Shown here: positions 1,276-24,039 of the stretch, in pieces
Layout: the number at the start of each line of letters is the position of its first letter
Numbering within the stretch: position 1 is the stretch's first letter
Notes under the pieces: model-generated
Seen by the model: only the letters and a program-made list of their open reading frames with translations
The model's database searches: none
Told to the model about the DNA's origin: nothing
Source: a virus
Reading direction: 5' to 3' (one strand)
DNA length: 43,003 bases
IMG/VR virus record: IMGVR_UViG_2597490185_000004
Coordinates: 1-43,003 of that record
Position numbers and translations under genes: made by a program

Positions 1276-1914
1276 ATGGAACATATCAAATCAACAAGGG
1301 AACTCTCTAAGATGCCGTTTATTATTGGTGATGCGGATTTCAATAAAAAACTACGCATGCCGTCAAAGAACGTAGAACACACTCAATCGTTTTTAGATAA
1401 CGGTGTGACAGACTACACTTTGCCTGAATATGTCGTGCCGCACGGCTATCGCTTGGTCAAATCTTTGAAGAAAGATCAATTCCGTATGATCGCAGACGGC
1501 AAAGAACCAGAAACCGTTTACCTTGTTGAAGTATTTTTCCGAGAAGATATTGTTGTCGGCAAAACAACTTGTACCCAAATCAAAGTATGGCGTACTGTTT
1601 CGGCTAAACATCAGGAAGTCGTATCCGGTTTCCCGAAGACATTCTTTAAGCACCTTTTGATGAACCACAACATCGTCGTGACCGACGAGCAACAAACTGG
1701 TGACGGTAAGCGCTTCTGGGAAGCAATTATTTCTTGGGCGCTGAATATGAAATACAATGTTTACGCCTCAGATGGCACACAAGAAGATAGACCATTAATT
1801 ATCATTAAGACTATGGATGAATTTTACGACAAATGGGATGAATTTTGTTGGGGACACGATCCTGAAGTTCACACCCACCGCCTTGTGGTTATTAGTAGAA
1901 CGCCTCTGGTTTAA
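1276..1914 (+). CDS. Hypothetical protein, possible GNAT-like fold
   Basis: ORF 1264..1914, with the likely start ATG at 1276 after GGAGG. The C-terminal motif IVVTDEQQTGDGKRFW resembles the SD..Q/LT..G..FW pattern of phage GNAT-like proteins. Confidence 0.6.
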   Translation: MEHIKSTRELSKMPFIIGDADFNKKLRMPSKNVEHTQSFLDNGVTDYTLPEYVVPHGYRLVKSLKKDQFRMIADGKEPETVYLVEVFFREDIVVGKTTCTQIKVWRTVSAKHQEVVSGFPKTFFKHLLMNHNIVVTDEQQTGDGKRFWEAIISWALNMKYNVYASDGTQEDRPLIIIKTMDEFYDKWDEFCWGHDPEVHTHRLVVISRTPLV

Positions 1915-2090
1915 AATCCCCAAATAGGGGTTCTAAGTGGGGAAGAAGCTCAACAGAACGATTTTAGCGTAATCCATGCTGCTCAACAATGGCTGCCAAT
2001 TGAGAGACAAAAAATTGGACGGTTCCGATTTATTCCCCAACGTTGAACCTTATCGGGGGATGGGCAAAAATAGCCACGTCAGTATGACAG

Positions 2091-2212
2091 TCACAGGGGC
2101 CATCCATCTGTTTCTTCCGCCTGTTTGAGGGGCCTTAGCTGACCTTTTGTTACCTGTTCCGCAAGCGTGAATGTGTAGTGCCCCAGCATGGGAGTCCGTC
2201 AGTAAGGGGGGA
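2091..2212 (-). pseudogene. tnpA: Tn3-family transposase C-terminal remnant
   Basis: Minus strand 2189-2091 reads MLGHYTFTLAEQVTKGQLRPLKQAEETDGWPL*, closely matching the Tn3 TnpA C-terminus MLGHYSFTLAELVTKGHLRPLKEA. An out-of-frame SPLTDG lies just upstream (cf. SPLxHGHINMLGHY). Confidence 0.8.
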
Positions 2213-2584
2213 ACTGAGAGCTTTCAATGAAGATTTGTAATATATTGATTAGTAATATAATGGCTATTTAAATTGACCACTTAATGGCGATTACTGTTCC
2301 GCTGCTCCTCAAACCCCTATTTTCATCTCGCGAGATAGCCTAAGACCGGCTTCTTAAGACTCATCCGAAATACCTCAAAACCCATATTACATAAATTAAA
2401 TTTAACTGATATTCTTGTAAAATACCTCTTTAACCCCATCGACTGTAAACATACATAAATTTTTCCGATAAAATACCGATAAGTAATTAATCAAAGCAGG
2501 CTTGCGAAAAAAAGGGAATTCAGCACGTTGCCCAGAGTGAACTAGCCACGTTTATCAAAAATTGAATATCGAAAAAGGAACGAT

Positions 2585-4315
2585 GTGAAAACCTTTGAAC
2601 ACTATTTTCAACACGAGATCGCATATCTTCGCGCACTACAACGATTGATTAGCCAGGAAAAACCCCATCTGGCCGATATCCTCAATGGGCAAGATCCCGA
2701 TGTGGAAAGAATCAGCGAAGGCTTTGCATTTTTAACCGCACGTCAGCATCAAAAAATTGATGATGGTTTTCCGGAAATCACCCGCCCGACATTGCAAAGC
2801 TTACGCTCTCAGACCATTAAAGGCATACCAACTACCAGTGTCATGCAACTACACAGTGGGATTGGCGCAGACTCCGCCTGTTCAGTACCGAAAGTCAGTC
2901 AAATGACGACTGAGGCTGAATGCATCTTCGTGACCAGTCGGCAATGCGACATCGAACCGCTGGCACTGATCCGGCGAGAAATCTCTTATCAAGCAAAAGA
3001 AACCCAGCTCAAACTGACCTTTCAATATACCGGCAAGGATGACCATTGGCTTATCAACCCCATTAGCCTGTTTCTCAGTGCAGATAACACCGTGGCGGAC
3101 AGCCTGATGCTGGCGTTGAGGCAATATGCCTATGACATTCGGTTATACCGGGGAGAAACGTTGTGTCCGATGGACGGCATTCGTCTGGAACCGTTGCAGG
3201 GGACATCGCGTTTGATCCTGTCTCCCCCGCAAAAGTCAGGAAACTGGGCACCGCAATTATTGTTGGAATCCCTTTATCTGCCGCATGTCCACCACTTTAT
3301 GACATTGGTTTTGCCCACTTTCATGCAAGACCGTTTATCAATGGCAGAAACCAATGAATTTACCCTTACCATTCAGCTTAGTTGCGAGCTGGATGTGTCT
3401 GAAGCGCAAATTGAGCAGGCTTTTCACCTTCATTGTGTCCCGGTCTTCAACCGACAATCGCTGAGGTTAACAATCCCCTTTACGCCGGACAGTGCCCGTT
3501 ACTGTTTACCCATCGAGAACGGGATACTGGATGTTGTGGGGGTGGAGTTGGAGCAAGAGCCGGGGGAAGCCCTGCACCGCGGCCAGACATGCCAATTCTA
3601 CCCCACCAGCGTGTTGACGGGGATGGAGCGTTACCCTGATGATGAACCGGCGTGGTTCTATTCACTGGAAACGAGTGTTGATGCGTTGGGCAGGTTGCAA
3701 CATGAACTGGTGTTTCGCGATAACCGAAACCAATTAATGGCATCACCACCCGCGCATAAATTTGTTTGTCATTTCATGACCTTTGAGCTTCAAGCCCCGC
3801 CATTATCGCCCGGGGAAATCTGTTATGCCGATGAAAACATCCCGGATGATTTTCACATCAAAAACCTGACCACCGTCTCATCGCCTTATCCGCCGTTCAC
3901 CAATAACCACCATTACTGGACATTATTGTCACACTACTCCGCCAGTCCCTTTTTACTGTATTCGGCGGAGGCGCTTAAGCATTTGTTGCTGGGGTACGAT
4001 CTTTATGCCGATAAAGACAGAAACCAGAGCCGGAGGCTGCGGCGCCTGATCGGAGGCATTGTGACTGTGGAGTCTGTCTCTGGTGACAGGCTCGTGATGG
4101 GAGTTCCCCATCGTTGCCTGTTTGTTGATTTGACACTGGATAATACGGCTTATGAATCTGAAGGCGAGTTATTTGGGTTCGCCAATACCCTGTTTCAGTT
4201 TTTACCCTTTTGTCTGGCACAAGATATGCGGATGTTAATGAAATGCCACACAACATCGGGGGAAACCTATGTTTTATCTCGGTATCCTGTACAGGGATAC
4301 CGTCCGTTAATGTGA
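2585..4315 (+). CDS. tssF: Divergent T6SS baseplate subunit TssF (VasA/ImpG)-like
   Basis: 576 aa. The N-terminal YFQHEIAYLR...DPDVERISEGFAFLTAR...KIDDGFPEIT, internal FHLHCVPVFN and WTLLSHYS, and the C-terminal GELFGF are typical of TssF. Confidence 0.85.
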   Translation: MKTFEHYFQHEIAYLRALQRLISQEKPHLADILNGQDPDVERISEGFAFLTARQHQKIDDGFPEITRPTLQSLRSQTIKGIPTTSVMQLHSGIGADSACSVPKVSQMTTEAECIFVTSRQCDIEPLALIRREISYQAKETQLKLTFQYTGKDDHWLINPISLFLSADNTVADSLMLALRQYAYDIRLYRGETLCPMDGIRLEPLQGTSRLILSPPQKSGNWAPQLLLESLYLPHVHHFMTLVLPTFMQDRLSMAETNEFTLTIQLSCELDVSEAQIEQAFHLHCVPVFNRQSLRLTIPFTPDSARYCLPIENGILDVVGVELEQEPGEALHRGQTCQFYPTSVLTGMERYPDDEPAWFYSLETSVDALGRLQHELVFRDNRNQLMASPPAHKFVCHFMTFELQAPPLSPGEICYADENIPDDFHIKNLTTVSSPYPPFTNNHHYWTLLSHYSASPFLLYSAEALKHLLLGYDLYADKDRNQSRRLRRLIGGIVTVESVSGDRLVMGVPHRCLFVDLTLDNTAYESEGELFGFANTLFQFLPFCLAQDMRMLMKCHTTSGETYVLSRYPVQGYRPLM

Positions 4316-4333
4316 AAATAAGGACAGACAGTA

Positions 4334-6505
4334 ATGGATGGTTTAGTGTTTACCTGCCAGATAGGCAGATTGCCGCCGGCCACCTTTCAGGTGGTGAATT
4401 TCCAGTTACAGGAGCATTTATCACAGCTTTTTCACCTTAATCTGACCGTGATCAGCGCGCTAAATGACATCCCTTTGCGTGAACAACTTGATCGTGAAGC
4501 ATCATTAACGGTGATCCGCAATGGTGTCGTTGAACGTACCATAAATGGCATCATTGTGGGTGCAACACAAGGGAATACAGACGGCAGGCAGACTTATTAC
4601 ACCTTTATCTTGCGGCCGGAAATGTGGCGGATGACGCTCAATCAGGACAGCCGTATTTTTCAGCGCCAATCCGTTCCCGAAATTCTCACGCAGTTGCTGA
4701 AAGAGCATCGAATTAAAGCCGACAGCCAGTTTTATGATAGCCATGGGTATCATGCAAGACGGGAATATACGACCCAAAAACGGGAATCGGCCTATGAGTT
4801 CTGGAGCCGTTTGGCGGCGGAAGAAGGCATTATCTTTTGGTTTGAAGAAGACCAAATGTTCTTCAGCAATAGCCACTTGGGAATGACGGCGGGTCTCCCG
4901 TTAACCTATAACCCGCAGCCGGATACTGATGATACCGACGCGACCGTCTGGCAATGGCAATACGGGGAATACCTGTGCCCGGATGAATACCGCCATAAAG
5001 ACTATAATTTCCAGCGACCTTCCCAGCCGATGCTTACCCAAAGTACCTTGGAGCAAGCGGGCAATCATGCCGTGTTCGAAAGTTACGGGCGGTTCCAGTG
5101 GAGTAAGGAAGGCCAACCATTGGGGGACATTTATCTTAACCAGTTGAACAGTGAAAGTAAGATCGGCTCTGCGCAAAGCAACTGTATCAAGTTACGTCCG
5201 GGTAAAATATTCACGCTCAACGCCCACCCCGCGTTATCCATGAATGACCGCTGGCAGGTTGTCAGTATTACGCACACGGGGTCGCAGCCGCAGGCCGCAG
5301 GGATCGGCGGGGAAGGCACGACCTTAACCAGTAATATGACCTTTATCCCTGGCCGCGATGACTGGCGGCCACCGTACCGTTACAAACCCTTGGCCGATGG
5401 TGATGAATTGGCAACCGTGGTTGGGCCAGAAGGTGAAGAGATTTTCACCAACGAGTACGGGGCGATTAAAGTGCATTTTCACTGGAACCGCTACGACAAG
5501 CCGGGGGATGGCTCTTCGTGCTGGATACGGGTTGCCCAGGGCTGGAACGGCAACGGTTTTGGCTTTATGGCCATTCCCCGTATCGGTCAGGAAGTCATCG
5601 TTTCTTACCTGAACGGCGATATTGACCGCCCCATTGTGACCGGCTGCAATTACAACGGGCGCAATAGCCCGCCACTGGATTTGCCGGCACAAAAAACCCG
5701 CACAACGTTCAAGACTCATACACATAAAGGTGAAGGCTTTAACGAATTACGCTTTGACGATGCGAAGGGCAGCGAAGAAGTCTATATCCATGCCCAGAAA
5801 GACATGAACACCAAAGTGCTGAACAACCGCACGACGCAGGTTGATATGGATCATGAAGAGCGGATAGGACAAGACCAGAAATTGACGGTGGTACGGGATC
5901 AATTTGAGGAAATCCAACGCAGCCGTCAAACCCTGATCAAACAGGATGACGACGAGTCCGTTGCCGGTCATCAAACTTTACGGGTTGAAAAAAATCAGTC
6001 CACCACCATCACCGGGCAGCAAAGCGTCAACGTCGGTAAAAGCCAGTTGCTGGAAATCGCAGATAACCAGGAAATCAAGGTGGGGAAGCATATTGTGCTG
6101 CAATCTCAAAGCGGGCAAATCACGATAGGCAATGCTGGCGGCCAAATCATTATTGATCCGACAGGGGCTATCACGATTTCCGGCACCTCCATCTCAATGA
6201 CGGAGCACGCGGCCGGGAAAGCCGGCAGCCAGGCACTGTTTGATTATGCTGGTCGATTTATTCTGACCAACAGCAAGAACGGGAATAAGCCACTGGGCAA
6301 TACCCTGTATGAGATAAAAACCCCATCGGGGGTAGTATCCGGGCGTACCGATGCGTTTGGGCGTACAGCCATCGTACAGACGCCACAAGCGGATACGCTG
6401 GAGTTCAGCATCCCCGAAGAAAAAAAGGTAAAGAAAACCGAAACGCTTTACCACGTGGGGGATAATCAACCCGTGGATTACATCATGGAATTTAAGGAGG
6501 AATAA
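4334..6505 (+). CDS. vgrG: T6SS spike protein VgrG with C-terminal transthyretin-like extension
   Basis: QKRESAYEFWSRLAAEEGI, ATVVGPEGEEIFTNEYG, SSCWIRVAQGW, IPRIGQEVIV, FNELRFDDAKGSEEVYIHAQKDM, followed by beta-helix repeats and a C-terminal SGRTDAFGRT domain. Confidence 0.97.
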   Translation: MDGLVFTCQIGRLPPATFQVVNFQLQEHLSQLFHLNLTVISALNDIPLREQLDREASLTVIRNGVVERTINGIIVGATQGNTDGRQTYYTFILRPEMWRMTLNQDSRIFQRQSVPEILTQLLKEHRIKADSQFYDSHGYHARREYTTQKRESAYEFWSRLAAEEGIIFWFEEDQMFFSNSHLGMTAGLPLTYNPQPDTDDTDATVWQWQYGEYLCPDEYRHKDYNFQRPSQPMLTQSTLEQAGNHAVFESYGRFQWSKEGQPLGDIYLNQLNSESKIGSAQSNCIKLRPGKIFTLNAHPALSMNDRWQVVSITHTGSQPQAAGIGGEGTTLTSNMTFIPGRDDWRPPYRYKPLADGDELATVVGPEGEEIFTNEYGAIKVHFHWNRYDKPGDGSSCWIRVAQGWNGNGFGFMAIPRIGQEVIVSYLNGDIDRPIVTGCNYNGRNSPPLDLPAQKTRTTFKTHTHKGEGFNELRFDDAKGSEEVYIHAQKDMNTKVLNNRTTQVDMDHEERIGQDQKLTVVRDQFEEIQRSRQTLIKQDDDESVAGHQTLRVEKNQSTTITGQQSVNVGKSQLLEIADNQEIKVGKHIVLQSQSGQITIGNAGGQIIIDPTGAITISGTSISMTEHAAGKAGSQALFDYAGRFILTNSKNGNKPLGNTLYEIKTPSGVVSGRTDAFGRTAIVQTPQADTLEFSIPEEKKVKKTETLYHVGDNQPVDYIMEFKEE

Positions 6506-6507
6506 CA

Positions 6508-8073
6508 ATGGCGGAAAAACCTCAACAATTAAAACCAGGCACCATGTGCCCAGCTGTCACCTCAGTCAATTGCCGAATGGAGCAGATTGAATTCCCCAAA
6601 GATGAAGACCAATGCTACCTGGCAAGAAAAGCGGCGTTAGCCATTTGGGCACCCAAGATAAGTTTCAAAAAAGGAAAATCCATCTCCCTCAGACAGGCGA
6701 CGCTGAGCCAGTTGATTAAAGTAGAAGAAAATGCGTCTGATTGGCAATGGCAATATAAAGCAGAAGTAAGTTTTTACATGAGAGGGAGAAAGAAAACGCC
6801 ATTGCCTAAACTCGCGACAAGTGCAGGCAAAAAGAGGCTTTATGCAGGTAACTTACCCCACTCTGGAAGCTGGTTTTTAAATTTGTCTAAGCAAGACATC
6901 ATCAAACATGGTATTACAGGTTTGCGGCGACCTGATATTGTTTTAGTCAAAAATAAGCAGTTTCGCTGGCCGGGGCGTGACGCTCAATATCTTGATGGCT
7001 CCGTACATCCCGATAACCTGAAAGTGCTGATTGAAGTAAAATTTCCGGGAGACTCTTTATCAAAAGGACAAAAAAGAGATTATCCCCTCATTGCTGGTAA
7101 AGATCGCTTTGGTCTCTTTGTGGTTGAAGATAACCGGGATTCAGAAGAATGGAAAAATCAGTCAGCAGAAGCCAAAGCCGCTGAGATGGATTACATAAAA
7201 AAACATATGGCGTTGTTTGGTGGCTTATTTCCGCCGATTGACGGTAGTAATCGCCCTCCATCACCCGCACCAGCACCTGAAGTTAAACCGACACCACCCC
7301 CATCCTCTCCATTACCTATTCCGACCCACACAGGAATGGTCAGGTATATGCCGAAAAACCTCCCGCTGGTAAGTGAAAAACCGTGGCAGCATAAACCCAT
7401 GTTCAGTATCTGGATGGCTTTATCGCATGATCAAACCGTTCCCGCATTAATCACGCCCCCTGATGAATCATCATTTTGGGAACAAGTCGAAGCATTTTAT
7501 GATCAGGGTGTACAATTAGTGAAAGACGGGTTTACCTATACCAAGGATAGGGTTGTCCGAAGTTGGGAATGGACATGGGATTTAACGGCCAGTGGAATTA
7601 ATTACCTCACGGATAAAACACGTGAAGCCTTGGCGGCTTGCGGCGCCTGGTTTCGTGAATCGGGGAAATGGATAGCGGATGAAATTATTGATCCAGTAAC
7701 CAACAAGCTGAGCTATGCCATACATTGGGTGAGTGAAAAAACAGGGGAAATCGTTCGCCTTACCGAAGAAAAAATCACGGAAGCGGTGGAGATGCTATAC
7801 CAAAACACGGACTTGACCATTGAAGCATTAAAACACGTCGATTGGTATCAGATAGCGGCTGATTTGGGCAATGGAACCGTTGAATTAATGGTAAAAATCG
7901 GCGAAGAAATCGTTACCCTGATTGAAACCATTGTCGTTGTCGCTGCTATTGTTTTACTGGTTGGCTTAATCATTTGGGTGGGGAGTATTGTCGGCGGTGT
8001 CGCGTCGGCGGTATGGGCGATGTTGACCGCCGCAGCAGCGGGGATGGTCGCATTAACCGCGGCAACCGCATAA
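6508..8073 (+). CDS. Putative T6SS nuclease effector (VRR-NUC/TseV-like PD-(D/E)xK) with Pro-rich linker and hydrophobic C-terminus
   Basis: Directly downstream of vgrG. It has the motifs YKAEVSFYM, RRPDIVLVK and LIEVKFPGD, and a DUF3396-like gene follows it. Confidence 0.8.
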   Translation: MAEKPQQLKPGTMCPAVTSVNCRMEQIEFPKDEDQCYLARKAALAIWAPKISFKKGKSISLRQATLSQLIKVEENASDWQWQYKAEVSFYMRGRKKTPLPKLATSAGKKRLYAGNLPHSGSWFLNLSKQDIIKHGITGLRRPDIVLVKNKQFRWPGRDAQYLDGSVHPDNLKVLIEVKFPGDSLSKGQKRDYPLIAGKDRFGLFVVEDNRDSEEWKNQSAEAKAAEMDYIKKHMALFGGLFPPIDGSNRPPSPAPAPEVKPTPPPSSPLPIPTHTGMVRYMPKNLPLVSEKPWQHKPMFSIWMALSHDQTVPALITPPDESSFWEQVEAFYDQGVQLVKDGFTYTKDRVVRSWEWTWDLTASGINYLTDKTREALAACGAWFRESGKWIADEIIDPVTNKLSYAIHWVSEKTGEIVRLTEEKITEAVEMLYQNTDLTIEALKHVDWYQIAADLGNGTVELMVKIGEEIVTLIETIVVVAAIVLLVGLIIWVGSIVGGVASAVWAMLTAAAAGMVALTAATA

Positions 8074-8091
8074 TAAAGAAAAAGGATCATT

Positions 8092-9300
8092 ATGAATCAA
8101 GACGCTTACTTCGAGCATATCAAGGCACAGTTAACCAACTTTACCCTGCAAAGCGAACGCGATGTGACCGTGTCACGTTTAGGATTGGCCATCACCCTGT
8201 TTTTCAAACAAGGGTATACGCGAGAAAAAAAGGAGCGTATTCTCGCCTGTTTTCGACGATTTCGAGAAATGTACGGCGACAGATTACGATTCCATGCCCA
8301 CGAATTTAAAGGGCTAAAGAAGTTTTCAGCCGAAAATATTGAAAAGGTAGAGCAGCTAATTTTAAAAGCTGACAACGGGATATTTGTAGGTAATAAGATA
8401 TGCAGTTGGGATGTCAGTGATGCGAAAAATGCTGATGACGCGCCTCAATACAGGATGCATTATATTGATACGTGGGAAACTGATGGTAATGAGGCAAGCT
8501 CCTATTTATCTCTGGTATTACCGTGGGATCAGTTGGCAACAGATAAAGGGCAAACGGAATTTAACGAATGGCTGGCCTTTCTTTGTGAACAACTCAATCC
8601 CGATAGTGGGGAATGTGGTTACACATTAGTATTACCCCTAGACTATGAAATATACATGCCCCTAGAATATCAGCTTGCGATCCGTTATCCAACGATGCAG
8701 GTTAATTCTAATGTTTTTATCGACACCATGTATTTTTTTAATTCCATACGCAGTATTGACTGGATAACTTTGCTGTCACATCGCTTTATCAAGCGGTTGG
8801 GTGGTGAACAATGGGTAAGAAAAAAATTATCAGCCTATCCGGATATCGCCATTACTGAATACGGCAATGGACTGATAATTCGCGCCGGCGAATACCCTGA
8901 TTTGACCCCATTACCTGCCAGTGTGCCTGAAAGTTATATTGCGATTAATGAGTTAATTCGCCCTATACGTTATACCTTAAAAGATGAAGGTTACTCTTTA
9001 CATACCTATGGTGAAGGCCATTTCACAGGTGAAACCAGTGCCCTCTGGTATGCCCGTTATGACCGTGGCGCGTTACAAGTAGAGCCACTAATGGCGGGTG
9101 AGCCTGCCAGGGTGGATGGCTACTGGACAACCAAAGGGCGCGAAGGGCTGGAGAACGTCATCCTGCAAGGGGATATTGCCCCGGATGTTGAAGGCAATTC
9201 GCCGGGTACAACCGTGTGGCGTTTGGTGCGTCAGATTAAGCATGACGACATGAAAGATCTGAAAGAGCTAGAGGCACAACAAAATGCGGGCCACCATTGA
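8092..9300 (+). CDS. T6SS immunity protein, DUF3396/TsiV-like
   Basis: RLGLAITLFFKQG, SYLSLVLPW, SGECGY, EYQLAIRYP, IRSIDWITLL, GLIIRAGEYP and YIAINELIRPIR motifs; follows the effector gene. Confidence 0.8.
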   Translation: MNQDAYFEHIKAQLTNFTLQSERDVTVSRLGLAITLFFKQGYTREKKERILACFRRFREMYGDRLRFHAHEFKGLKKFSAENIEKVEQLILKADNGIFVGNKICSWDVSDAKNADDAPQYRMHYIDTWETDGNEASSYLSLVLPWDQLATDKGQTEFNEWLAFLCEQLNPDSGECGYTLVLPLDYEIYMPLEYQLAIRYPTMQVNSNVFIDTMYFFNSIRSIDWITLLSHRFIKRLGGEQWVRKKLSAYPDIAITEYGNGLIIRAGEYPDLTPLPASVPESYIAINELIRPIRYTLKDEGYSLHTYGEGHFTGETSALWYARYDRGALQVEPLMAGEPARVDGYWTTKGREGLENVILQGDIAPDVEGNSPGTTVWRLVRQIKHDDMKDLKELEAQQNAGHH

Positions 9301-9553
9301 CGGAAAGAAGATCATCCTGAAAGGGGACACCACAAATACGGGCGGTACGGTGCTGACCGGTTCAGGATTAACTAAGCAGGGTGAACCCGTGGCTTGTGTG
9401 GGGGATGACGTATTTTGTCCTGCGTGTAAGGGCACCGGCACTATTGCTGAAGGTTCCTCACTGACGGTGATTCAGGGGAAGGCGGTGGCTTTGGAAGGGC
9501 ACAAGGTAGATTGCGGCTGTCCCTCTGGCTGTACCCTTGTTGCTGGGGGATAA
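9284..9553 (+). CDS. PAAR-domain spike tip protein
   Basis: ILKGDTTNTGGTV, VACVGDDVFCPACKG, VALEGHKVDCGC: PAAR-like repeats with Cys/His metal ligands. Confidence 0.9.
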   Translation: MRATIDGKKIILKGDTTNTGGTVLTGSGLTKQGEPVACVGDDVFCPACKGTGTIAEGSSLTVIQGKAVALEGHKVDCGCPSGCTLVAGG

Positions 9554-9559
9554 TAAAAT

Positions 9560-9592
9560 CTCACAGGCGGTAGAATGGCTATCGCCTGTGAG
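9560..9592. terminator. Hairpin closing the T6SS cassette
   Basis: CTCACAGGCGGTAG-AATGG-CTATCGCCTGTGAG, a 14-bp stem with one G-U pair, just after the PAAR stop. Confidence 0.65.
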
Positions 9593-9716
9593 TGACACAA
9601 TTAATGGTCAAAAAATCAGCTATTCTTGTCTTCAGTTGATGATTGAAGTAAGCGAAAAGTTCATTACAAATAGTATTCACCCTTTTCTGTAGCAAATAGG
9701 TATCAGCCGTAGTCAT
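9579..9716 (-). CDS. Small 45-aa ORF, possibly a truncated phage gene
   Basis: ATG at 9716 has a good RBS (AGAGGAAAAATA-ATG). The frame runs into the hairpin that ends the T6SS cassette. Confidence 0.3.
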   Translation of the reverse strand: MTTADTYLLQKRVNTICNELFAYFNHQLKTRIADFLTINCVTHRR

Positions 9717-9758
9717 TATTTTTCCTCTCTTAACGATGAGATTAAAGTATAGACACCG

Positions 9759-9782
9759 AAAAAGAACGAACGCTGTTTGTTC
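9759..9782 (-). terminator. Possible intrinsic terminator after the partition operon
   Basis: Minus strand GAACAAAC-AGC-GTTCGTTC-TTTTT, with one mismatch in the stem. Confidence 0.4.
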
Positions 9783-9801
9783 GATAAAAAATCTATAATA
9801 T

Positions 9802-16474: not shown

Positions 16475-19400
16475 TTACAGCAAACCAAGCCTAACTCGCA
16501 AAACCCCCTTTTCGTCATAAACATCAATGCGATTGTTGGAAATGTTTAATCGACCTTGTCCAGACGTTTGGCCGTTCATCTCCAACTGTCCATTCTTACC
16601 TAATCTCCAGCCTGTTCTTCCAGATGAATAGTTGTCAGATTGTAGATCACCAACTTTACCACTGCTTATTGAACCATTTTTTATATAAGCGGCATTCATG
16701 TAGGTAACGCCGTTCTCGACAACAAACGGAGTGGTCACAACACTGTTGTTTACGTTAACTAAACCAAACCGATCAGCCTGAACGAGAAATTGTGAAACCG
16801 TGTTATTTACTCCTAATGCTAGGCCAGCTGCATAGTTTTTTCCGTCTTTGGTGGTCTCTATTTTCAGATTCCAAGAGGCAGAAATTTTCCCATTAATCTC
16901 GGCTACTGCTTTTGTAGTTTGCTGAACAATAACAGTGTTTTCATTTAGGTTCGCTTGAACAGTGTCTACACGCTTACCAAGTGCTGAATCGCCGTTAGCA
17001 CGAGCCGACTGTTCTGATTTTACAGCCGCCTCGTTAGCGTTAGCCTTCGCCAAAACCTTAGAGATTTCCCCTGCTAACGCTTCATCTTTTGTAGTTCTAG
17101 CATTTGCTTCATTAGCAACCGCACTGGCAATATCTTTGGTCGTTTTCGCACTTAAGGAATAGACTTGGGTTGCCAAACTTTCATCAGCGGTTGTACGTGC
17201 GTTTTTCTCCGCCAACACTGCCGCTTCAATATCCTTGCTAGTCTGTGCCTTAAGGTGTTCAACACTTTGAGCCAGAGCGCTATCTTTGGTAGCACGAGTA
17301 CTTTTTTCCTTGTCAAGTTGAGCCTTGATATCTGTACCGACTTCACTTCTCAATTGGGTGATTTGTTTAGACAATGCTTCATCTGCATTTGCTCTTGTCT
17401 GCTTTTCCTCACTTAACTGCGCCTTGATGTTTTGGTTTACTTCGCTTTTAAGTTGTGTAACCTGCTTAGACAATGCCTCATCTGAATTTGCCCGTGTTTG
17501 CTTTTCTTCATTTAATTGGGCTTTGATGTTTTGATTGAACTCTGCGGTCATTGTTTCTATTTTTTGAGACAATGCCTGCTGTCCATCCACTATGACTTTC
17601 TGGTCAGTAAATATCTTGGCGTTGGTTTCACGTTGTTCCCTAACTTCTTCTTCACCTTTTAACGCAGTATCAATAGCTGCCTTAGCCACAGCTTCAACAG
17701 AACCAGAAACGCGAGCGATTGTCTTTTCGGCACCAATAACCGTAGATTCAGCCCGCTTAATGACTGCGTCATGACTGTTTATCTTTGTTTCAATCAACTC
17801 AACTTTTTCAGTTGTCGCTTTGTCACCTTCAATACGAGCATTTTTTTCTTCGAGTAAGACGGTTTCTATATTACCTTTTACCGTTTGAATCGCCTCTAAC
17901 GTTGAAGCGAACTTCTTATTTTGCTCATCGACAGTATTTTTGATTTTGGTAATCTTAGATGCATTGTCACCTGCATCTTGCAGGGCTTTTTTAGCATTCT
18001 CTTTTACCGTTTCAACGGAAGAATTTAGACTCTCTTGAGAAACCTTAATTTCACCCGTTATTTTGCCAATCTCATCAATTTTCTTATCTGATTCATCCAC
18101 TAAATCTTGAATCGCATCAATCTTTGTCTCCGATTTACCAATCAAATCATGTATTGCATCAAGATCTCCTTTGGCAGCTTTAGTGTCGATTTCTTCTAAT
18201 AACTCTTTACCGAGTTCGCTTGAAGTAATTTTATTCTTCAAAAAGGACAGAACATCCTTCGTGGCTGCCTGCGTACCTAAATTAGAGTTTACAAGGCTTA
18301 ACATACCTCGTTTGTTGATCGCCCTAACCCAATAGAACCATGCTATGTCATCATCCAGACCTGAATGTGTAAAGGTTGTTGATGGAATCTTTGCCAGCAA
18401 ACTCGCTGTTTCTAAGTTATTTGTTTTTGAACCATAAACGTAAATCGTATCTAGATCGATTGAGTCTGGATTTACCCAAGTCAGCACAATTTGTCTGTAA
18501 TCACCAACAGCAACCAGATTTTTAGGTGCTCCGGGAGGCATCAAAGTACCTAACGTTTTGTAAACAGTCACTAAGGTTTCTGTTCGTCTGCCAGTGATTG
18601 AAATTGCAAATACTTCAATATCATAATTAGCATTGTCTGCAACATTTAGAATTTCACATTGGTTATCGGTAACTTCCATGAGAATCCAATTGTCTATTAC
18701 ATCACTGCGGCGATAACGGACAACATATTTGGGGGAACGCCCTTCCCAAGATACAATCAGTTTCACCGCCAAATTACCGGGTGATGAAAGGTAAGTTGTT
18801 TCCATCACCTGCAAACCAACCGGTTTGCTGAAAGTCGGATCTAAGACGCTTGATTTAGGTGGAATGAGGATTGCACCACGGTCAATCGCTTCAAACTTAG
18901 ACGGGTTGTGCTCAACACCGGTGATCTCAAACGTGCCTTTTTCATCGCTCTCTTTCACACTCAGAACACGAATTAAAACGGGTTCTAAATCAGGTTCAGT
19001 AACCGTCCAAACACCCATTTCTACAGGTTCATCACCTGCCTTAATGGGTTCTTTAAATGTTACAATCTGATATTCGCCAGCCAGTTCAAGCAAGTTGCGA
19101 TCTATCATACGGCTGTCAGCCGTTAAAAATGTGATAAACGCCCCTTCTTTATCGAGCCTTACTGATGCATCCAGTGTTATGCTATTTTTGGTAAAAGACT
19201 TAATACGACCCGAATTACGCTTACCGGAGCGATATTTATCTTGTAATTTTACCAATTCACCGGGAACCAGAAACGAACTATCAATCCCTGCTTTGAAGAT
19301 AACAACATCTGTCTCCATTTTCGCAGTGTAAAGCAGCCACAGCCCCGTTCTGTATGCTTGCCCTCGGCTGGTACACCCAAACGCCAGTGATTCCGTTTTA

Positions 19401-20749
19401 CGGATGCCAAAGCGCTTCTTGGCCTCCTCGTCCTCGATGTATTCAACATTTTGTTTGTAAAGGTCATCTTTGTCGTTATAAGTAACAACGGCAACGGTTG
19501 GACGATCTTTTCGTGAAGACCCCTTACGAACGACTTTATCGATGATATTTGCTGCCGAAAACTGCATAACAGGTGTAGCTGGACTGTCTTGTCGGAGATT
19601 GATCATACCGCCAGCCCAAAACACCATGCCCCGGAATACTGATGCAATGTCAGAGATGACCTTATACGCTTCCTGACGGCTTACAATCACGGTATTAATC
19701 GTGAACCGTTTTTCCATCCCACCGAAGCCATCAGGAACTTCTTGATCACAATAGCGCCCTATCTGATAGAACTGTCCTTTGTCTATCATCGATTCATTAA
19801 CGAAATTCCCTAGACCATATCGTTTATTGATAAGTAAGTCGTAGAGAATCCATGCAGGGTTAGATGACACCTGAATATCAAAGCCACCATCCCAGTCACC
19901 TTGGTAGGTGTTATCGGTAGGAAGATAGTTTGAAGGAACCCGAATTTTCATCCCCGAAACAAGGTATGAGCGGCGAGGCATATTCCCGCCAAATTCCCGT
20001 GAATCAATGGTGATCCCAACAATCGCACTGTTAGGGTACGCCATTTTTGCAAATACGATTTCTCCGTAGGATGCCACTACGGTTTTGTTATGCAGATAAT
20101 CGCTATTGGTATCGGGTGTAAATCGAACGATCCGAATACGGTAGTTTTTGCCGGGTTTAGGCAAGTCAATAAAATATTCTCTCTGGAATTTACCGCTCGA
20201 TTTTTTGGCAACTGTAATTATATTATCTTCATGGCCTAACGGAATTACAGGCTTAAACGAATTATCGCCTATGGCTAATTGAAACTGGAATTTCACTTCC
20301 GCCCCATTTATGTCTCCGTTTTCTTTGTCAGTCGAGGTTATACGGGGAAATTCCATAATGATCCGCACGCGATCGGCATCATCATTGTCAATTTGCAACG
20401 TTTTAGGTTTAGTTGTTTTAAGCTCTGTTGCAACATTATAAGGGGTTTCAATGTCGCCAAAACCATCTATTGGGGCTTGGTTTTGCTCTCCCCTCCTTTC
20501 CCAAAACTTCACTCCATTGAAGTTTGATGAGCTGTCAGGATTCAACAAAGGTACATTGTCCAAGAAAATAGACTGGCCGCCATTTTTCAGACCACCAATT
20601 GCACCTTCGCCCAACAGATCCAATATTGAAGCGAGTGTTTTAGATTCAACGTTGTCGGGCGCTTCAACTGACTGCCTGGGGCTGTCGTTGTTCTCGCCAC
20701 CACCAGCCCCCGCTATGATCACTTTTTCTTTTTTCACCGCAATCTCCAT
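16475..20749 (-). CDS. Central tail tip / host specificity protein (lambda gpJ-like)
   Basis: LDLLGEGAIGGL, AYPNSAIVG, SSNPAWILYDLL, YQIGRYCDQEVPDGFGG, FN3-like domains, a coiled coil and the C-terminal GVLRVRLG. Confidence 0.93.
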   Translation of the reverse strand: MEIAVKKEKVIIAGAGGGENNDSPRQSVEAPDNVESKTLASILDLLGEGAIGGLKNGGQSIFLDNVPLLNPDSSSNFNGVKFWERRGEQNQAPIDGFGDIETPYNVATELKTTKPKTLQIDNDDADRVRIIMEFPRITSTDKENGDINGAEVKFQFQLAIGDNSFKPVIPLGHEDNIITVAKKSSGKFQREYFIDLPKPGKNYRIRIVRFTPDTNSDYLHNKTVVASYGEIVFAKMAYPNSAIVGITIDSREFGGNMPRRSYLVSGMKIRVPSNYLPTDNTYQGDWDGGFDIQVSSNPAWILYDLLINKRYGLGNFVNESMIDKGQFYQIGRYCDQEVPDGFGGMEKRFTINTVIVSRQEAYKVISDIASVFRGMVFWAGGMINLRQDSPATPVMQFSAANIIDKVVRKGSSRKDRPTVAVVTYNDKDDLYKQNVEYIEDEEAKKRFGIRKTESLAFGCTSRGQAYRTGLWLLYTAKMETDVVIFKAGIDSSFLVPGELVKLQDKYRSGKRNSGRIKSFTKNSITLDASVRLDKEGAFITFLTADSRMIDRNLLELAGEYQIVTFKEPIKAGDEPVEMGVWTVTEPDLEPVLIRVLSVKESDEKGTFEITGVEHNPSKFEAIDRGAILIPPKSSVLDPTFSKPVGLQVMETTYLSSPGNLAVKLIVSWEGRSPKYVVRYRRSDVIDNWILMEVTDNQCEILNVADNANYDIEVFAISITGRRTETLVTVYKTLGTLMPPGAPKNLVAVGDYRQIVLTWVNPDSIDLDTIYVYGSKTNNLETASLLAKIPSTTFTHSGLDDDIAWFYWVRAINKRGMLSLVNSNLGTQAATKDVLSFLKNKITSSELGKELLEEIDTKAAKGDLDAIHDLIGKSETKIDAIQDLVDESDKKIDEIGKITGEIKVSQESLNSSVETVKENAKKALQDAGDNASKITKIKNTVDEQNKKFASTLEAIQTVKGNIETVLLEEKNARIEGDKATTEKVELIETKINSHDAVIKRAESTVIGAEKTIARVSGSVEAVAKAAIDTALKGEEEVREQRETNAKIFTDQKVIVDGQQALSQKIETMTAEFNQNIKAQLNEEKQTRANSDEALSKQVTQLKSEVNQNIKAQLSEEKQTRANADEALSKQITQLRSEVGTDIKAQLDKEKSTRATKDSALAQSVEHLKAQTSKDIEAAVLAEKNARTTADESLATQVYSLSAKTTKDIASAVANEANARTTKDEALAGEISKVLAKANANEAAVKSEQSARANGDSALGKRVDTVQANLNENTVIVQQTTKAVAEINGKISASWNLKIETTKDGKNYAAGLALGVNNTVSQFLVQADRFGLVNVNNSVVTTPFVVENGVTYMNAAYIKNGSISSGKVGDLQSDNYSSGRTGWRLGKNGQLEMNGQTSGQGRLNISNNRIDVYDEKGVLRVRLGLL
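17030..17545 (-). repeat. About five degenerate 33-aa (99-bp) tandem repeats in the gpJ coiled coil
   Basis: NIKAQLNEEKQTRANSDEALSKQVTQLKSEV / NIKAQLSEEKQTRANADEALSKQITQLRSEV / DIKAQLDKEKSTRATKDSALAQSVEHLKAQT, and further more degenerate copies. Confidence 0.8.
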
Positions 20750-20924: not shown

Positions 20925-20944
20925 AGAGGCTTTAATTAGCCTCT
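20925..20944. repeat. Left copy of a 20-bp target-site duplication (terminator hairpin)
   Basis: AGAGGCT-TTAATT-AGCCTCT; 19/20 identical to 23348-23367. Confidence 0.85.
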
Positions 20945-20996
20945 CAAGTTACTGACAAAATGCTGGCTTTTTATCTGGCACTTTGTCAGTAACCTG
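20945..20996. mobile_element. 52-bp miniature inverted-repeat element (IS1182/IS5-like ends)
   Basis: CAAGTTACTGACAAAATGC ... GCACTTTGTCAGTAACCTG is a 17/19 inverted match. It shares TTTTTATCTGGCAC with the element at 23151-23347. Confidence 0.75.
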
Positions 20997-21016
20997 AGCT
21001 GGAAACATTTCCGGCT
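20997..21016 (-). terminator. Hairpin just downstream of birA
   Basis: AGCTGGAAA-CA-TTTCCGGCT, with 8 of 9 positions complementary. Confidence 0.5.
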
Positions 21017-21022
21017 TTATAT

Positions 21023-21982
21023 TCAACAACCTCTCAAGGATATTTCTCCACCAATATAAGGTGTAACTACACCATTAATATCAAGAAGTAATGCACCTTG
21101 TTGGTCAATTCCTCGGGCGATTCCGCAAGTTTCTTGATCACCAATAATTAATTTCACAGGGCGATTAATAAAATTATCTAATTCAAACCATCTCGAAATA
21201 AAAGGAGATAACCCTTCTTTTTCAAACTGCACGAGCGCTTTTTTAAGTTCAATGATGATTTCAGCAACTAATTTATTCCGCTCAACTGTCATGCCTGTAT
21301 GCAATAAACTGGTTGATTTTTGATTAATTATTTTCTGTTGTTCATTACTTATCGAAATATTGATCCCTATTCCGATCACAATTTGTGCAGCATCCCCTGT
21401 TTTCCCTGTCAATTCAACCAATATTCCAGCCAGTTTTTTATCATCCAAATACAAATCATTTGGCCATTTTACCTTTACGTTTTTCGCTCCTTGCCGATTA
21501 AGTACTTCTGCAATCACAATCCCAACAACTAAGCTTAAGCCTATTGCTGCCGCCGGCCCTTGCTCTAAGCGCCAATACATGGATAAATATAAGTTCCGCC
21601 CAAATGCTGAGATCCATTGCCTACCTCGGCGTCCTCTTCCTGCATACTGATATTCTGCAACGCAGGAATCACCTGAATTAAGCTCAGGCAGCTTCTCCAG
21701 CAGATATTGATTCGTTGAATCAATAACAGGGATTACCTCAATGTGATCATTTGGAAGATAATCTGCAATAATTTTGCTATCAAGAAGGTCCATTGATATT
21801 GGGAAGCAGTAACCTTTTCCCGGAAGGGTCAAAACCTCAACTCCCCATTCACGGATTGTCTGAATATGTTTATTGATCCCTGCCCGGCTCATTCCCAATT
21901 CTTGACCAAGTTGCTGCCCAGAATGAACTTCACCATCTGATAAAAATTTAATTAGTTTTAACGGAATACTAATATCTTTCAT
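21023..21982 (-). CDS. birA: Bifunctional biotin-[acetyl-CoA carboxylase] ligase / biotin operon repressor
   Basis: N-terminal HTH (HSGQQLGQELGMSRAGINKHI), IDSTNQYL, AEYQYAGRGRRGRQW and KVKWPNDLY..DKKLAGILVE. The start overlaps the murB stop (ATGA). Confidence 0.98.
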   Translation of the reverse strand: MKDISIPLKLIKFLSDGEVHSGQQLGQELGMSRAGINKHIQTIREWGVEVLTLPGKGYCFPISMDLLDSKIIADYLPNDHIEVIPVIDSTNQYLLEKLPELNSGDSCVAEYQYAGRGRRGRQWISAFGRNLYLSMYWRLEQGPAAAIGLSLVVGIVIAEVLNRQGAKNVKVKWPNDLYLDDKKLAGILVELTGKTGDAAQIVIGIGINISISNEQQKIINQKSTSLLHTGMTVERNKLVAEIIIELKKALVQFEKEGLSPFISRWFELDNFINRPVKLIIGDQETCGIARGIDQQGALLLDINGVVTPYIGGEISLRGC

Positions 21983-23019
21983 GAAATACATTCCACCGCA
22001 TCTATCTCACCCTCACTACCGATAAAGCGTACTTCAGGCTCTAAATGAATATTAAACTTTTCGGCTACTTTATTTCGGACATAAGCAGCTAATGCAACAA
22101 TATCCTGCCCTGTTGCATTTCCTTTGTTAATTAATACTAATGCCTGGTTTGTATGAATAGCCGCATCGCCAACGGAATATCCTTTTAAATCACATTGTTC
22201 AATCAACCACCCTGCTGTAATTTTTACACTATGCTCATTAACGCAATACTGAGGGCAATCTGGGTATGTAAATTTAATTTTCTGAGCTAATGCTGCTGAT
22301 ATGATAGGGTTTTTAAAGAAACTCCCCGCATTGCCCATTATTGCAGGATCGGGTAACTTACTCTGGCGAATTTCACACACCATATTAAATACTTGCTCTG
22401 GAGTCACATCTTCTCGCGAGAATTTAGCCAAACCACCATAAGTTAACGTTGGCTCCCAGATTTTATTCAAACGTAACCCGACGGCAGTAATAGCGTAATC
22501 ATCTTTATATTGATGTTTGAATATACTATCTCTATAGCCAAATTGACACGCATTGGCCATTAGACGAATTGAATTTCCCGTTTTCAGCTCAATAAGCTCC
22601 ACATACTCACAGACATCTTTAAATTCAACGCCATATGCGCCGATATTCTGAATAGGGGCAGAGCCTACATTTCCGGGAATTAACGCTAAGTTTTCCAAAC
22701 CGTAAATCTGTTGGTTGAGCAAAGAGATGATCAATTGATGCCAATTTTCACCTGCACCAACATGAACATGCCAAGCTGTATCAGACTCTTGTATATTAAT
22801 ACCAAGAATGCGGTTTAGGATCACAGTACCTTTAAAATCGTCGGTGAAAAGAACGTTACTTCCTCCTCCCAACAATAAAATAGGATGATTCTTTTCCATT
22901 GCTTCTCGCCATAAGGTCAGAAGAAATTCAATAGAGGTGGCTATACCGATATGATCGGCGCTGGCTGAAATGCCAAACGTGTTGAACGCTTTTAGTTGGG
23001 TAGATTGACAAACAGACAT
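21979..23019 (-). CDS. murB: UDP-N-acetylenolpyruvoylglucosamine reductase
   Basis: LGGGSNVLF, GAGENWH, LENLALIPGNVGSAPIQNIGAYG, CQFGYRDSIFK, GNAGSFFKNP and LEPEVRFI. Confidence 0.98.
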   Translation of the reverse strand: MSVCQSTQLKAFNTFGISASADHIGIATSIEFLLTLWREAMEKNHPILLLGGGSNVLFTDDFKGTVILNRILGINIQESDTAWHVHVGAGENWHQLIISLLNQQIYGLENLALIPGNVGSAPIQNIGAYGVEFKDVCEYVELIELKTGNSIRLMANACQFGYRDSIFKHQYKDDYAITAVGLRLNKIWEPTLTYGGLAKFSREDVTPEQVFNMVCEIRQSKLPDPAIMGNAGSFFKNPIISAALAQKIKFTYPDCPQYCVNEHSVKITAGWLIEQCDLKGYSVGDAAIHTNQALVLINKGNATGQDIVALAAYVRNKVAEKFNIHLEPEVRFIGSEGEIDAVECIS

Positions 23020-23127
23020 TCACTTTAGGCTCAATAGGTAATTTAAGCCGCAGTCTATCAGACTCTATATTTGAAAGGTAAATAGTTACCCAATACCTAC
23101 CTGTTAATAAAATATAAGAGAGCTAGA

Positions 23128-23151
23128 AAAGCCACTCATTAGAGTGGCTTT
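23128..23151 (-). terminator. Intrinsic terminator upstream of murB
   Basis: AAAGCCACTC-ATTA-GAGTGGCTTT, a perfect 10-bp stem. Confidence 0.75.
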
Positions 23152-23347
23152 AGATTACTGACAAAGGGTTTTTTATCTGGCACCTTATTGGTTTTATCTG
23201 TGATTCAGCCGTGCATTTATCGGGTCAAAAACCCAATCATGCTCAGGAAAAGACGTGTCGGGGATAAATAAGGAAAAATCGGAAGATAATGGTTGATAAT
23301 GAATACCGCAAACCCCGCTACTTTCAACGAGGTTTGTCAGCGGTCAG
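23151..23347. mobile_element. 197-bp MITE (IS1182/IS5-like ends)
   Basis: TAGATTACTGACAAA ... TTTGTCAGCGGTCAG terminal inverted repeats with no coding capacity. It abuts a hairpin at each end. Confidence 0.75.
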
Positions 23348-23367
23348 AGAAGCTTTAATTAGCCTCT
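23348..23367. repeat. Right copy of the 20-bp target-site duplication
   Basis: AGAAGCTTTAATTAGCCTCT, followed by TTTGTTTTTT. Confidence 0.85.
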
Positions 23368-23424: not shown

Positions 23425-24039
23425 TCAGTTAATTAATTGTTCTACGGACAATTTAAGACTGATTAACTGAGAACCAACGAGGATTTCTTCACCGTAAATA
23501 ATAGGCACAGGTGCACCCTGTTCTACTGTATTTTGAGGGCCGTCAAAGTAAGTTGAGTTTTTACGATTATCAGCGCCTCCTGTATAGGGGTTAGGTGTTT
23601 TTGTAAGAAGCCCCATAACTCCACCAATCAACATTGATGCTCCTGCTAACGCTAATGCATAGTTTTGAGTATAAAGACCGACCACAATCAAAACAGCCCC
23701 AATAACTGCCTGAATAGCACCCATAACCTTAGCGCCAGCCCCCCGATAGATGGGAGTAACGCAAACATGAACCATATCCCCATGATTTTCCATCTGGTAT
23801 TCAGTTTCACTCATATCTCGTATTGTGCCGTTAGCTCTGGTCACACGGATATGGTATTTCTGGTACTTTGTAGCATTCTGTTTCATCCAGGCGAGCACCC
23901 CCTGTCTATTGCAGTTAATGATGCTAATGCCCTGCCGTACCGTAATACATTTGACTCTGTGCTCTTTGCCAAACTTCTTACCCAACACGCCACCAAATTC
24001 AAACGTGACTAAATTAGGCTCTTTTACTTTTTCACTCAT
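23425..24039 (-). CDS. Tail assembly protein I-like
   Basis: GVLGKKFGKEH N-terminus, hydrophobic centre and STYFDGPQNTVEQGAPVPIIYGE; L-K-I-J synteny. Confidence 0.9.
   Translation of the reverse strand: MSEKVKEPNLVTFEFGGVLGKKFGKEHRVKCITVRQGISIINCNRQGVLAWMKQNATKYQKYHIRVTRANGTIRDMSETEYQMENHGDMVHVCVTPIYRGAGAKVMGAIQAVIGAVLIVVGLYTQNYALALAGASMLIGGVMGLLTKTPNPYTGGADNRKNSTYFDGPQNTVEQGAPVPIIYGEEILVGSQLISLKLSVEQLIN

Follow-up and report, generated by a model that had tools for sequence, protein, structure and literature searches.

The DNA considered here (hereafter the window: the whole stretch of 43,003 nucleotides from the virus record IMGVR_UViG_2597490185_000004) corresponds to the first 43 kb of G000, a record of 109,800 bp which is a predicted phage-plasmid, classed as linear and 93% complete. 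Between the phage tail genes I and J, the window contains two core chromosomal genes of bacteria, murB and birA. They lie in a unit of 2403 bp (20945-23347) whose ends derive from an insertion sequence (IS) of the IS1182 family and which has a 20-bp direct repeat on each side. The features of this locus are, from left to right:

20925-20944, no strand: left copy of the 20-bp target duplication, which is the phage I-J terminator hairpin; a U run still follows it on the minus strand; present in single copy in the sister records L005-L007
20945-20996, no strand: 52-bp palindrome made of two IS1182 left ends joined through the subterminal hairpin of the left end; its outer tip is CAA instead of CAG
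20997-21016, no strand: chromosomal birA/coaA terminator hairpin, left limit of the chromosomal homology
21023-21991, minus strand: birA, biotin ligase/repressor, 322 amino acids (aa) from the first ATG, intact (NF008849, 561.8 bits for a cut-off of 474; PDB 1bia, E value 7e-139)
21979-23019, minus strand: murB, UDP-N-acetylmuramate dehydrogenase, 346 aa, intact (NF000755, 482.9 bits for a cut-off of 277; PDB 1mbb, E value 1.6e-133)
23020-23150, minus strand: native upstream spacer of murB, ending in the terminator hairpin of an rrn operon (about 23128-23150), right limit of the homology; the 5S ribosomal RNA was not captured
23151-23347, plus strand: internally deleted IS1182 of 197 bp, in which a damaged left end (TAG tip, 4-bp deletion) is joined to the final ~169 bp of the IS
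23348-23367, no strand: right copy of the 20-bp target duplication, with one mismatch (19/20)

Insertion into the terminator between I and J

A preliminary description of the window, made from its letters alone, had placed intact murB and birA between I and J, in an insert flanked exactly by a 20-bp hairpin repeat (19/20 identical). The coordinates and the NCBIfam cut-offs confirm the first point, and the repeat is indeed found at 20925-20944 and 23348-23367. By a rough estimate, two repeats agreeing at 19 or more of 20 positions, exactly in register with the outer tips, would arise by chance with a probability of 2e-10. The same description expected related phage-plasmids to show an empty site with one hairpin. 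This is what we observed in the three closest (L005-L007, about 84% identical in nucleotides) of 12 tail-I loci from viral contigs: the same hairpin stands there a single time and the insert is lacking; when aligned to the window, these loci match up to the left copy of the repeat and again from the right copy on. The terminator between I and J was already present in this empty site. Five sister records, three of them at least 90% complete, were searched and gave no match to any part of the insert, IS ends included. A scan of the viral contigs for the exact hairpin returned five matches, three in sister records and two in unrelated contigs.

We mapped the reads of the run X1 at 85% likeness (4409 reads, 3043 of them at least 99% alike). 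X1 may be the sample behind the assembly of the window, and it tests this assembly, not an independent isolate. One could imagine that the assembly joined a chromosomal murB-birA to the phage contig through repeated IS ends, since the depth over most of the cargo is about twice the phage depth. This doubling, however, is due to the presence of a second copy of murB-birA, diverging by about 8% and found in about half of the reads over the cargo, which clip at 21030 and 23112. The depth lies between 147 and 197 across the bins containing only phage DNA, both junction bins included, and no joint is reported. At the left junction it is flat at 157-167 (44-bp resolution) and no loose end is seen there, the sole one listed at this scale being at 21030. 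Among the loose ends listed, none is at the right junction either. The reads thus run over both junctions with no gap. With these reads and the empty sites of the sister phages, we rejected a misassembly, which we consider extremely improbable.

The right loose end of the second copy resembles the ordinary rrn terminator of Xenorhabdus chromosomes; hence we take this copy to be the chromosomal operon of the isolate. The phage read depth is about equal to that of this chromosomal copy. Its identity to the phage copy, which the preliminary description had proposed to measure, is about 92% (at least 166 listed differences over about 2.1 kb). So many differing positions rule out a recent pick-up from the isolate's own chromosome. 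The replacement of a lost chromosomal gene is ruled out too for this isolate, as the second copy is present at about equal depth and no indel is listed within its coding part. The insert is real, and it is neither a recent copy of the isolate's gene nor a substitute for a lost one.

Chromosomal origin of the cargo

The MurB of the window is 80-84% identical to Xenorhabdus proteins. We searched 35 Xenorhabdus genomes (one per species, often drafts) and 34 of them match the cargo, the best at 82% in nucleotides, with a homology spanning 20997 to 23081-23151. On the chromosomes this homology is bounded by the birA/coaA and rrn terminator hairpins, coaA and the 5S gene being left out. The comparison bears out the earlier claim that the inner ends of the insert lie at the two chromosomal terminators bounding murB-birA. 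The stem of the captured rrn terminator (23128-23150) is one symmetric base pair shorter than in the chromosomal versions seen, and still folds.

In a murB-birA tree of 30 loci of the genus and one outgroup, the window copy stands on its own branch of length 0.23 with no supported sister, and for this reason we name no donor. Its nearest known relative is the chromosomal copy of the isolate. No relative of this MurB was found in viral contigs by a scan which detects close relatives only. In the phage and plasmid collections, MurB matches 29 and 67 records respectively, and many of the enterobacterial ones among those listed resemble chromosomal pieces by title or size, NC_021742.1 (L210) alone having been inspected. 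Although it is labelled as a Serratia plasmid, this record proves to be a piece of chromosome of 44 kb (purH-rpoBC-murB) whose annotation has no plasmid genes.

The IS1182 ends and their parent element

According to the preliminary description, the insert begins with a 52-bp element and ends with a 197-bp one, both with CTGACAAA/TTTGTCAG terminal inverted repeats. The two elements stand, at 20945-20996 and 23151-23347, but their true inverted repeats extend outward beyond CTGACAAA/TTTGTCAG, up to CAG...CTG tips. Both have ends coming from an IS, and yet they are unlike each other: the first consists of two left arms, the second of a left and a right one. The fusion point of the 197-bp element is an 8-bp microhomology of the GGCACTTT type, which is present twice in the IS; its right tip is CAG instead of CTG, and a remnant of the transposase can be recognized at 23174-23254. 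G000 has just four IS1182 ends, all of them in this insert and three with altered tips. Beyond the remnant, no intact or further IS1182 transposase was found in the 109.8-kb record.

The parent IS occurs in Xenorhabdus, with a length of 1576-1584 bp (about 1.58 kb) and CAG...CTG tips. The window ends are identical to it at 34 of 37 positions on the left and at 146 of 168 in the right part. The copy L116 encodes a transposase in an unbroken open reading frame (ORF) of 475 aa (NF033551, 483.8 bits for a cut-off of 270; PF05598 and PF13751, that is DUF772 and DDE_Tnp_1_6), so that an autonomous IS with the same ends, predicted at the outset, does exist in the genus. In L114, L117, L144 and L127, the transposase is split in two frames near residue 190, and either a lesion which these copies share or a programmed frameshift may be the reason.

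Of the four full-length copies, three stand between duplicates of an entire hairpin (25, 26 and 35 bp); the full-length copy L116 has a different hairpin on each side. Of 74 IS-like ends in the loci retrieved, 47 lie against a hairpin, compared with 62 of 1500 random positions; the 74 ends include the four of the window, orthologous sites and some chance matches. The membership in the IS1182 family, the hairpin targets and the long duplications of whole hairpins, all three put forward in the preliminary description, are thus well founded. A left end is found at the same birA terminator, a natural target of the IS, oriented like the inner arm of the window, in L024, L029 and L077 (one clade of the tree), and in L120 a right end adjoins a second copy of the birA terminator hairpin. 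In the genome G004, the IS ends from the birA/coaA terminator (L024, L120) are on different contigs and adjoin different genes; hence birA and coaA appear to have been split there by an IS-linked rearrangement. Both ends of the IS carry subterminal palindromes, and in the IS ends L100, L148 and L201 the loop of the subterminal hairpin is inverted with respect to most copies.

The outer tips of the 2403-bp unit are one left end and one right end, the pair which a transposase needs. As the duplication lies outside this pair, we concluded that the phage hairpin was the target of a transposition. We ruled out an inverted composite of the simple kind, mobile by means of two right ends, because the left outer end is of the left type.

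Probable scars of the IS at both ends of the insert

The preliminary description saw in the two small elements MITEs (miniature transposable elements with inverted repeats). Devoid of transposase, they would already have been at both chromosomal terminators, and a transposase encoded elsewhere in the cell would have moved the whole unit in trans. This would agree with the correct left/right pair of outer ends and their duplication, with the autonomous copies of the IS in the genus, and with the existence of another left-deletion-right derivative (L148, 277 bp). Composites bounded by MITEs, the TIME-COMPs, are known to move (PMC13367494). Moreover both elements are short (52 and 197 bp), non-coding and IS-ended, as MITEs are.

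However, dispersed copies, the other mark of MITEs, are not seen. The 197-bp form occurs in none of the 35 genomes, where its deletion junction is spanned by 0 of 28 matches (from 17 genomes), each match covering the left or the right part only. The X1 reads show no extra depth over either small element, nor any trace of them beside the chromosomal murB-birA copy, which had been expected to be flanked by the same two MITEs. Neither element has a target duplication of its own, only the whole unit having one, and a flanking duplication is absent from every two-armed mini-element or deletion derivative found. Since neither element was found in multiple copies or with a duplication of its own, the mobilisation of pre-existing MITEs in trans is the weakest of the three routes weighed in this section and the next, and we regard it as quite unlikely.

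Two-armed pieces of 50-53 bp exist elsewhere, left-left in G007 (L187, on G007:C124) and right-right in G007, G011 and G023 (L184-L186). They differ in sequence, and all four clear ones join unlike flanks, none of them with a duplication; the L187 piece, which is similar to the 52-bp element, lies between two different hairpins. Seven further pattern matches were examined and none has a flanking duplication: L235 and L239 resemble one decayed two-armed site and five resemble single ends or chance matches. A gapped pattern allowing mismatches gave 0 matches in 251 genomes of the family, in a scan run without a positive control and hence uninformative. The two-armed pieces look like scars of recombination at the subterminal hairpins of the IS. 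The small elements of the window are better termed IS scars than a MITE family.

How the unit may have arisen

IS1272, a member of the IS1182 family, targets terminator hairpins and moves the housekeeping gene sh-fabI with a spare left inverted repeat (IRL); the resulting transposon TnSha1 consists of the spare repeat (IRL'), sh-fabI and IS1272, part of the target being deleted (PMC4923244). A route for housekeeping genes through terminator hairpins has therefore a precedent. We favour, at about an even chance, the reading in which the insert is a chromosomal murB-birA which moved as a TnSha1-like transposon (a complete IS and a spare left end) and whose transposase was deleted afterwards. Its starting points were observed: IS ends border the unit, the target hairpin is duplicated, relatives show an empty site, and there exists a parent IS with the habit of adjoining and duplicating hairpins. 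The layout also follows the precedent: the left tip at 20945, then birA-murB, then a left end, a deleted transposase and a right end at 23151-23347.

The steps would be the following. In a Xenorhabdus-like donor, copies of the IS would have settled at two terminators, that of rrn upstream of murB and that of birA/coaA, the left ends of both facing murB-birA. A crossover or deletion between these two left ends, at the 30-bp subterminal palindrome, would have produced the 52-bp piece with a left tip pointing outward, either before the jump or afterwards by the collapse of a larger composite. The transposase would then have acted on this left tip and on the right end of the rrn-side IS and inserted the unit at the I-J terminator, duplicating the hairpin. 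Last, a 1.39-kb deletion by microhomology would have removed the transposase. That the exact deletion is absent from the 35 genomes fits a deletion made at this site. Since both outer tips are mutated, the unit would no longer be mobile.

Some points weigh against this reading. The order of the deletion and of the jump cannot be dated. We found neither a donor chromosome nor an intermediate: among the 34 matching genomes of the genus the highest identity is 82%, and the isolate's copy is at about 92%. TnSha1 deletes part of its target, whereas the present IS duplicates it. Finally, two-armed pieces joining unlike flanks are predicted more directly by another route, in which the IS came first and the cargo later. 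A plain IS1182 would have jumped into the phage hairpin, making the duplication. Homologous recombination with a chromosomal IS upstream of murB would have integrated the phage-plasmid, and an aberrant excision through a crossover between the left-end palindromes of the phage side and of the birA side would have freed a circle containing murB-birA and the 52-bp scar.

This order of events gives the layout of the window exactly, including a 52-bp piece which joins the phage hairpin directly to the birA hairpin, and it accounts for the unlike flanks, without duplication, of the four clear pieces found elsewhere. The inverted subterminal loops of L100, L148 and L201 suggest that exchange occurs at this palindrome. 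The hairpins on the two sides of L116 differ, the birA-terminator ends of G004 are now beside different genes, and the phage-plasmid encodes its own RecA. On the other hand, two rare recombination steps are required after the transposition, while one transposition explains the same ends. Furthermore no IS end or other part of the insert is matched in the five sister records, the hairpin of L005-L007 being empty. We hold this route for possible, though not probable. It recalls F-prime factors and specialised transducing phages, with which chromosomal genes located by a crossover point land on an episome; the boundaries of the window, however, are IS ends at terminators with a target duplication, and not an attachment site.

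The cargo genes and selection

MurB and BirA of the window exceed the NCBIfam equivalog cut-offs over their full length and align end to end with the E. coli structures, the start of E. coli BirA aligning to residue 4 of the window protein. The residues R159, S229 and E325 of E. coli MurB and the GRGRRG motif of BirA, which we take to be catalytic positions, are conserved. When compared to the chromosomal copy of the isolate, 61 of the 75 distinct sites listed (out of at least 166) are synonymous. With the help of 30 outgroup loci, 27 differences were placed on the window's side, and 20 of these are synonymous, for a neutral expectation of about 70% non-synonymous (p 3e-6). From these counts, the lineage of the window allele has experienced purifying selection.

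The native spacer upstream of murB is retained in the insert, and murB-birA is oriented in the same direction as the tail genes. Most likely, judging by the sequences, murB-birA would be a working, non-essential second copy beside the chromosomal one. More BirA is expected to tighten the repression of the biotin operon. Three points call for caution. The excess of synonymous changes may have accrued in the donor chromosome and not on the phage. The MurB of the window breaks five columns which are invariant in the 30 other copies, the most of the 31 rows (0-4 in the others); its BirA breaks two such columns, which is mid-range. Lastly, no sigma-70-like promoter was found upstream of murB: the scan gave 5 sites versus 9.4 expected, none of them at this place.

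A wider proposal would be that the IS1182 lineage acts as a terminator-to-terminator capture device which fixes core units on phage-plasmids, murB-birA being kept there under selection; we find it unlikely. If the lineage were such a device, its self-complementary subterminal hairpins would recombine into new outward ends and units would be cut at their natural borders. If selection acted on the phage, lysogens would gain, for a cell-wall enzyme and for the biotin sensor, another allele of foreign origin.

Comparison with known systems

The unit works like TnSha1 but is not a member of it. In both cases an IS1182-family element sits at the base of the terminator of a housekeeping gene and, provided with an extra left end, gives rise to an additional copy of a core enzyme; TnSha1 takes sh-fabI to other replicons (PMC4923244). 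According to the same source, TnSha1 keeps its transposase and deletes part of its target without duplication, whereas in the window the transposase is lost and the hairpin is duplicated. The window unit differs further by its spare end, a two-armed palindrome derived from the IS, by its cargo, a two-gene operon, by its recipient, a phage tail region, and by having no known resistance phenotype. IS1272 replaces inverted-repeat targets with no duplication (PMC5678879), and relatives of IS1182 operate with or without passenger genes and duplications (PMC12056078).

On the Aminobacter plasmid pMET-1, an IS1182 and an additional IRL likewise bound a chromosomal segment, containing mfmAB, which was carried to the plasmid with a target duplication (10.1101/2025.04.28.651035). 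This segment is of about 57 kb, the duplication of 5 bp and the IS intact, and the available text of that source contains no hairpin targeting. The TIME-COMPs share with our unit the passenger DNA between two short elements without transposase (PMC13367494); they are derived from Tn3, belong to repeated families and bound resistance genes, whereas the two window elements are not alike, come from IS1182 and did not turn up as families. The literature searched, outside which lie most subscription papers and ISfinder, holds no report of murB-birA on a phage-plasmid, of this Xenorhabdus IS or of the two-armed pieces.

This locus offers a natural example, with clean boundaries, of core chromosomal genes borne by a phage-plasmid, in which the empty site, the parent IS and the resident chromosomal copy are all at hand. 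It extends the idea of TnSha1 beyond staphylococci, to a lineage of enterobacteria in which the IS duplicates the hairpin rather than deleting it. The two-armed pieces of 50-53 bp provide a recognizable signature of rearrangement at the subterminal palindromes of an IS, which could be sought in whole genomes. Should the copy be expressed and under selection, phage-plasmids would transfer essential-gene alleles from one species to another; should it be a passenger, it would be a neat fossil of a known mechanism.

The phage-plasmid and its neighbouring genes

The two tail genes on either side of the insert are:

16475-20749, minus strand: gene J, intact tail fibre/tip gene of 1424 aa, on the downstream side of the insert (E value 0 with PHROG 31, central tail fibre J)
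23425-24039, minus strand: gene I, tail assembly (204 aa), intact, upstream of the insert (PHROG 32, E value 5e-48)

Profile matches in the window include a terminase, a portal, a capsid, a lambda-like tail block and ParA/ParB. Beyond the window, G000 encodes a Rep3 initiator (Rep3_N), RecA, DNA polymerase III alpha and genes of nucleotide metabolism. An initiator, partition genes and a full set of virion genes are thus united in about 110 kb, as is required of an SSU5-like phage-plasmid, and by its gene content G000 appears to be one; we infer that it is extrachromosomal and particle-forming. Around the insert, the DNA of G000 best matches plasmids of 100-110 kb from Moellerella, Providencia and Pectobacterium (about 70%), then elements of the SSU5 type. 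With SSU5-like phage-plasmids G000 shares the size of about 110 kb, Rep3, ParA/ParB, the lambda-like tail and the use of the I-J gap as an accessory slot; it differs from them in that no relative examined has murB-birA or IS1182 ends in this gap.

The contents of the I-J gap vary. It contains a Shedu defence gene in L003 (2835-3725) and two unassigned ORFs in L002, and it is empty in L001, L004, L009, L015 and L211. In L005-L007 (about 6669-7216), it contains a toxin-antitoxin pair of the Phd/ParE type, which is absent from the window and is ended by the hairpin. As different relatives carry different genes there, the gap can be considered as an accessory or exchange slot.

A second cargo of about 7.9 kb is found in the window at about 1910-9800, with genes of the type VI secretion system (T6SS) type: tssF-like, vgrG, a VRR-NUC nuclease effector, a TsiV immunity gene and PAAR. 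It is unmatched in the five sister records, and in G285 about 44 bp, with a terminator-like hairpin, separate its two flanks; its edges are devoid of IS1182 ends. One can also notice an extra short immunity gene of the TsiV type, located beyond the window and apart from the T6SS cluster, at 101794-102162 of G000 (L218:2794-3162).

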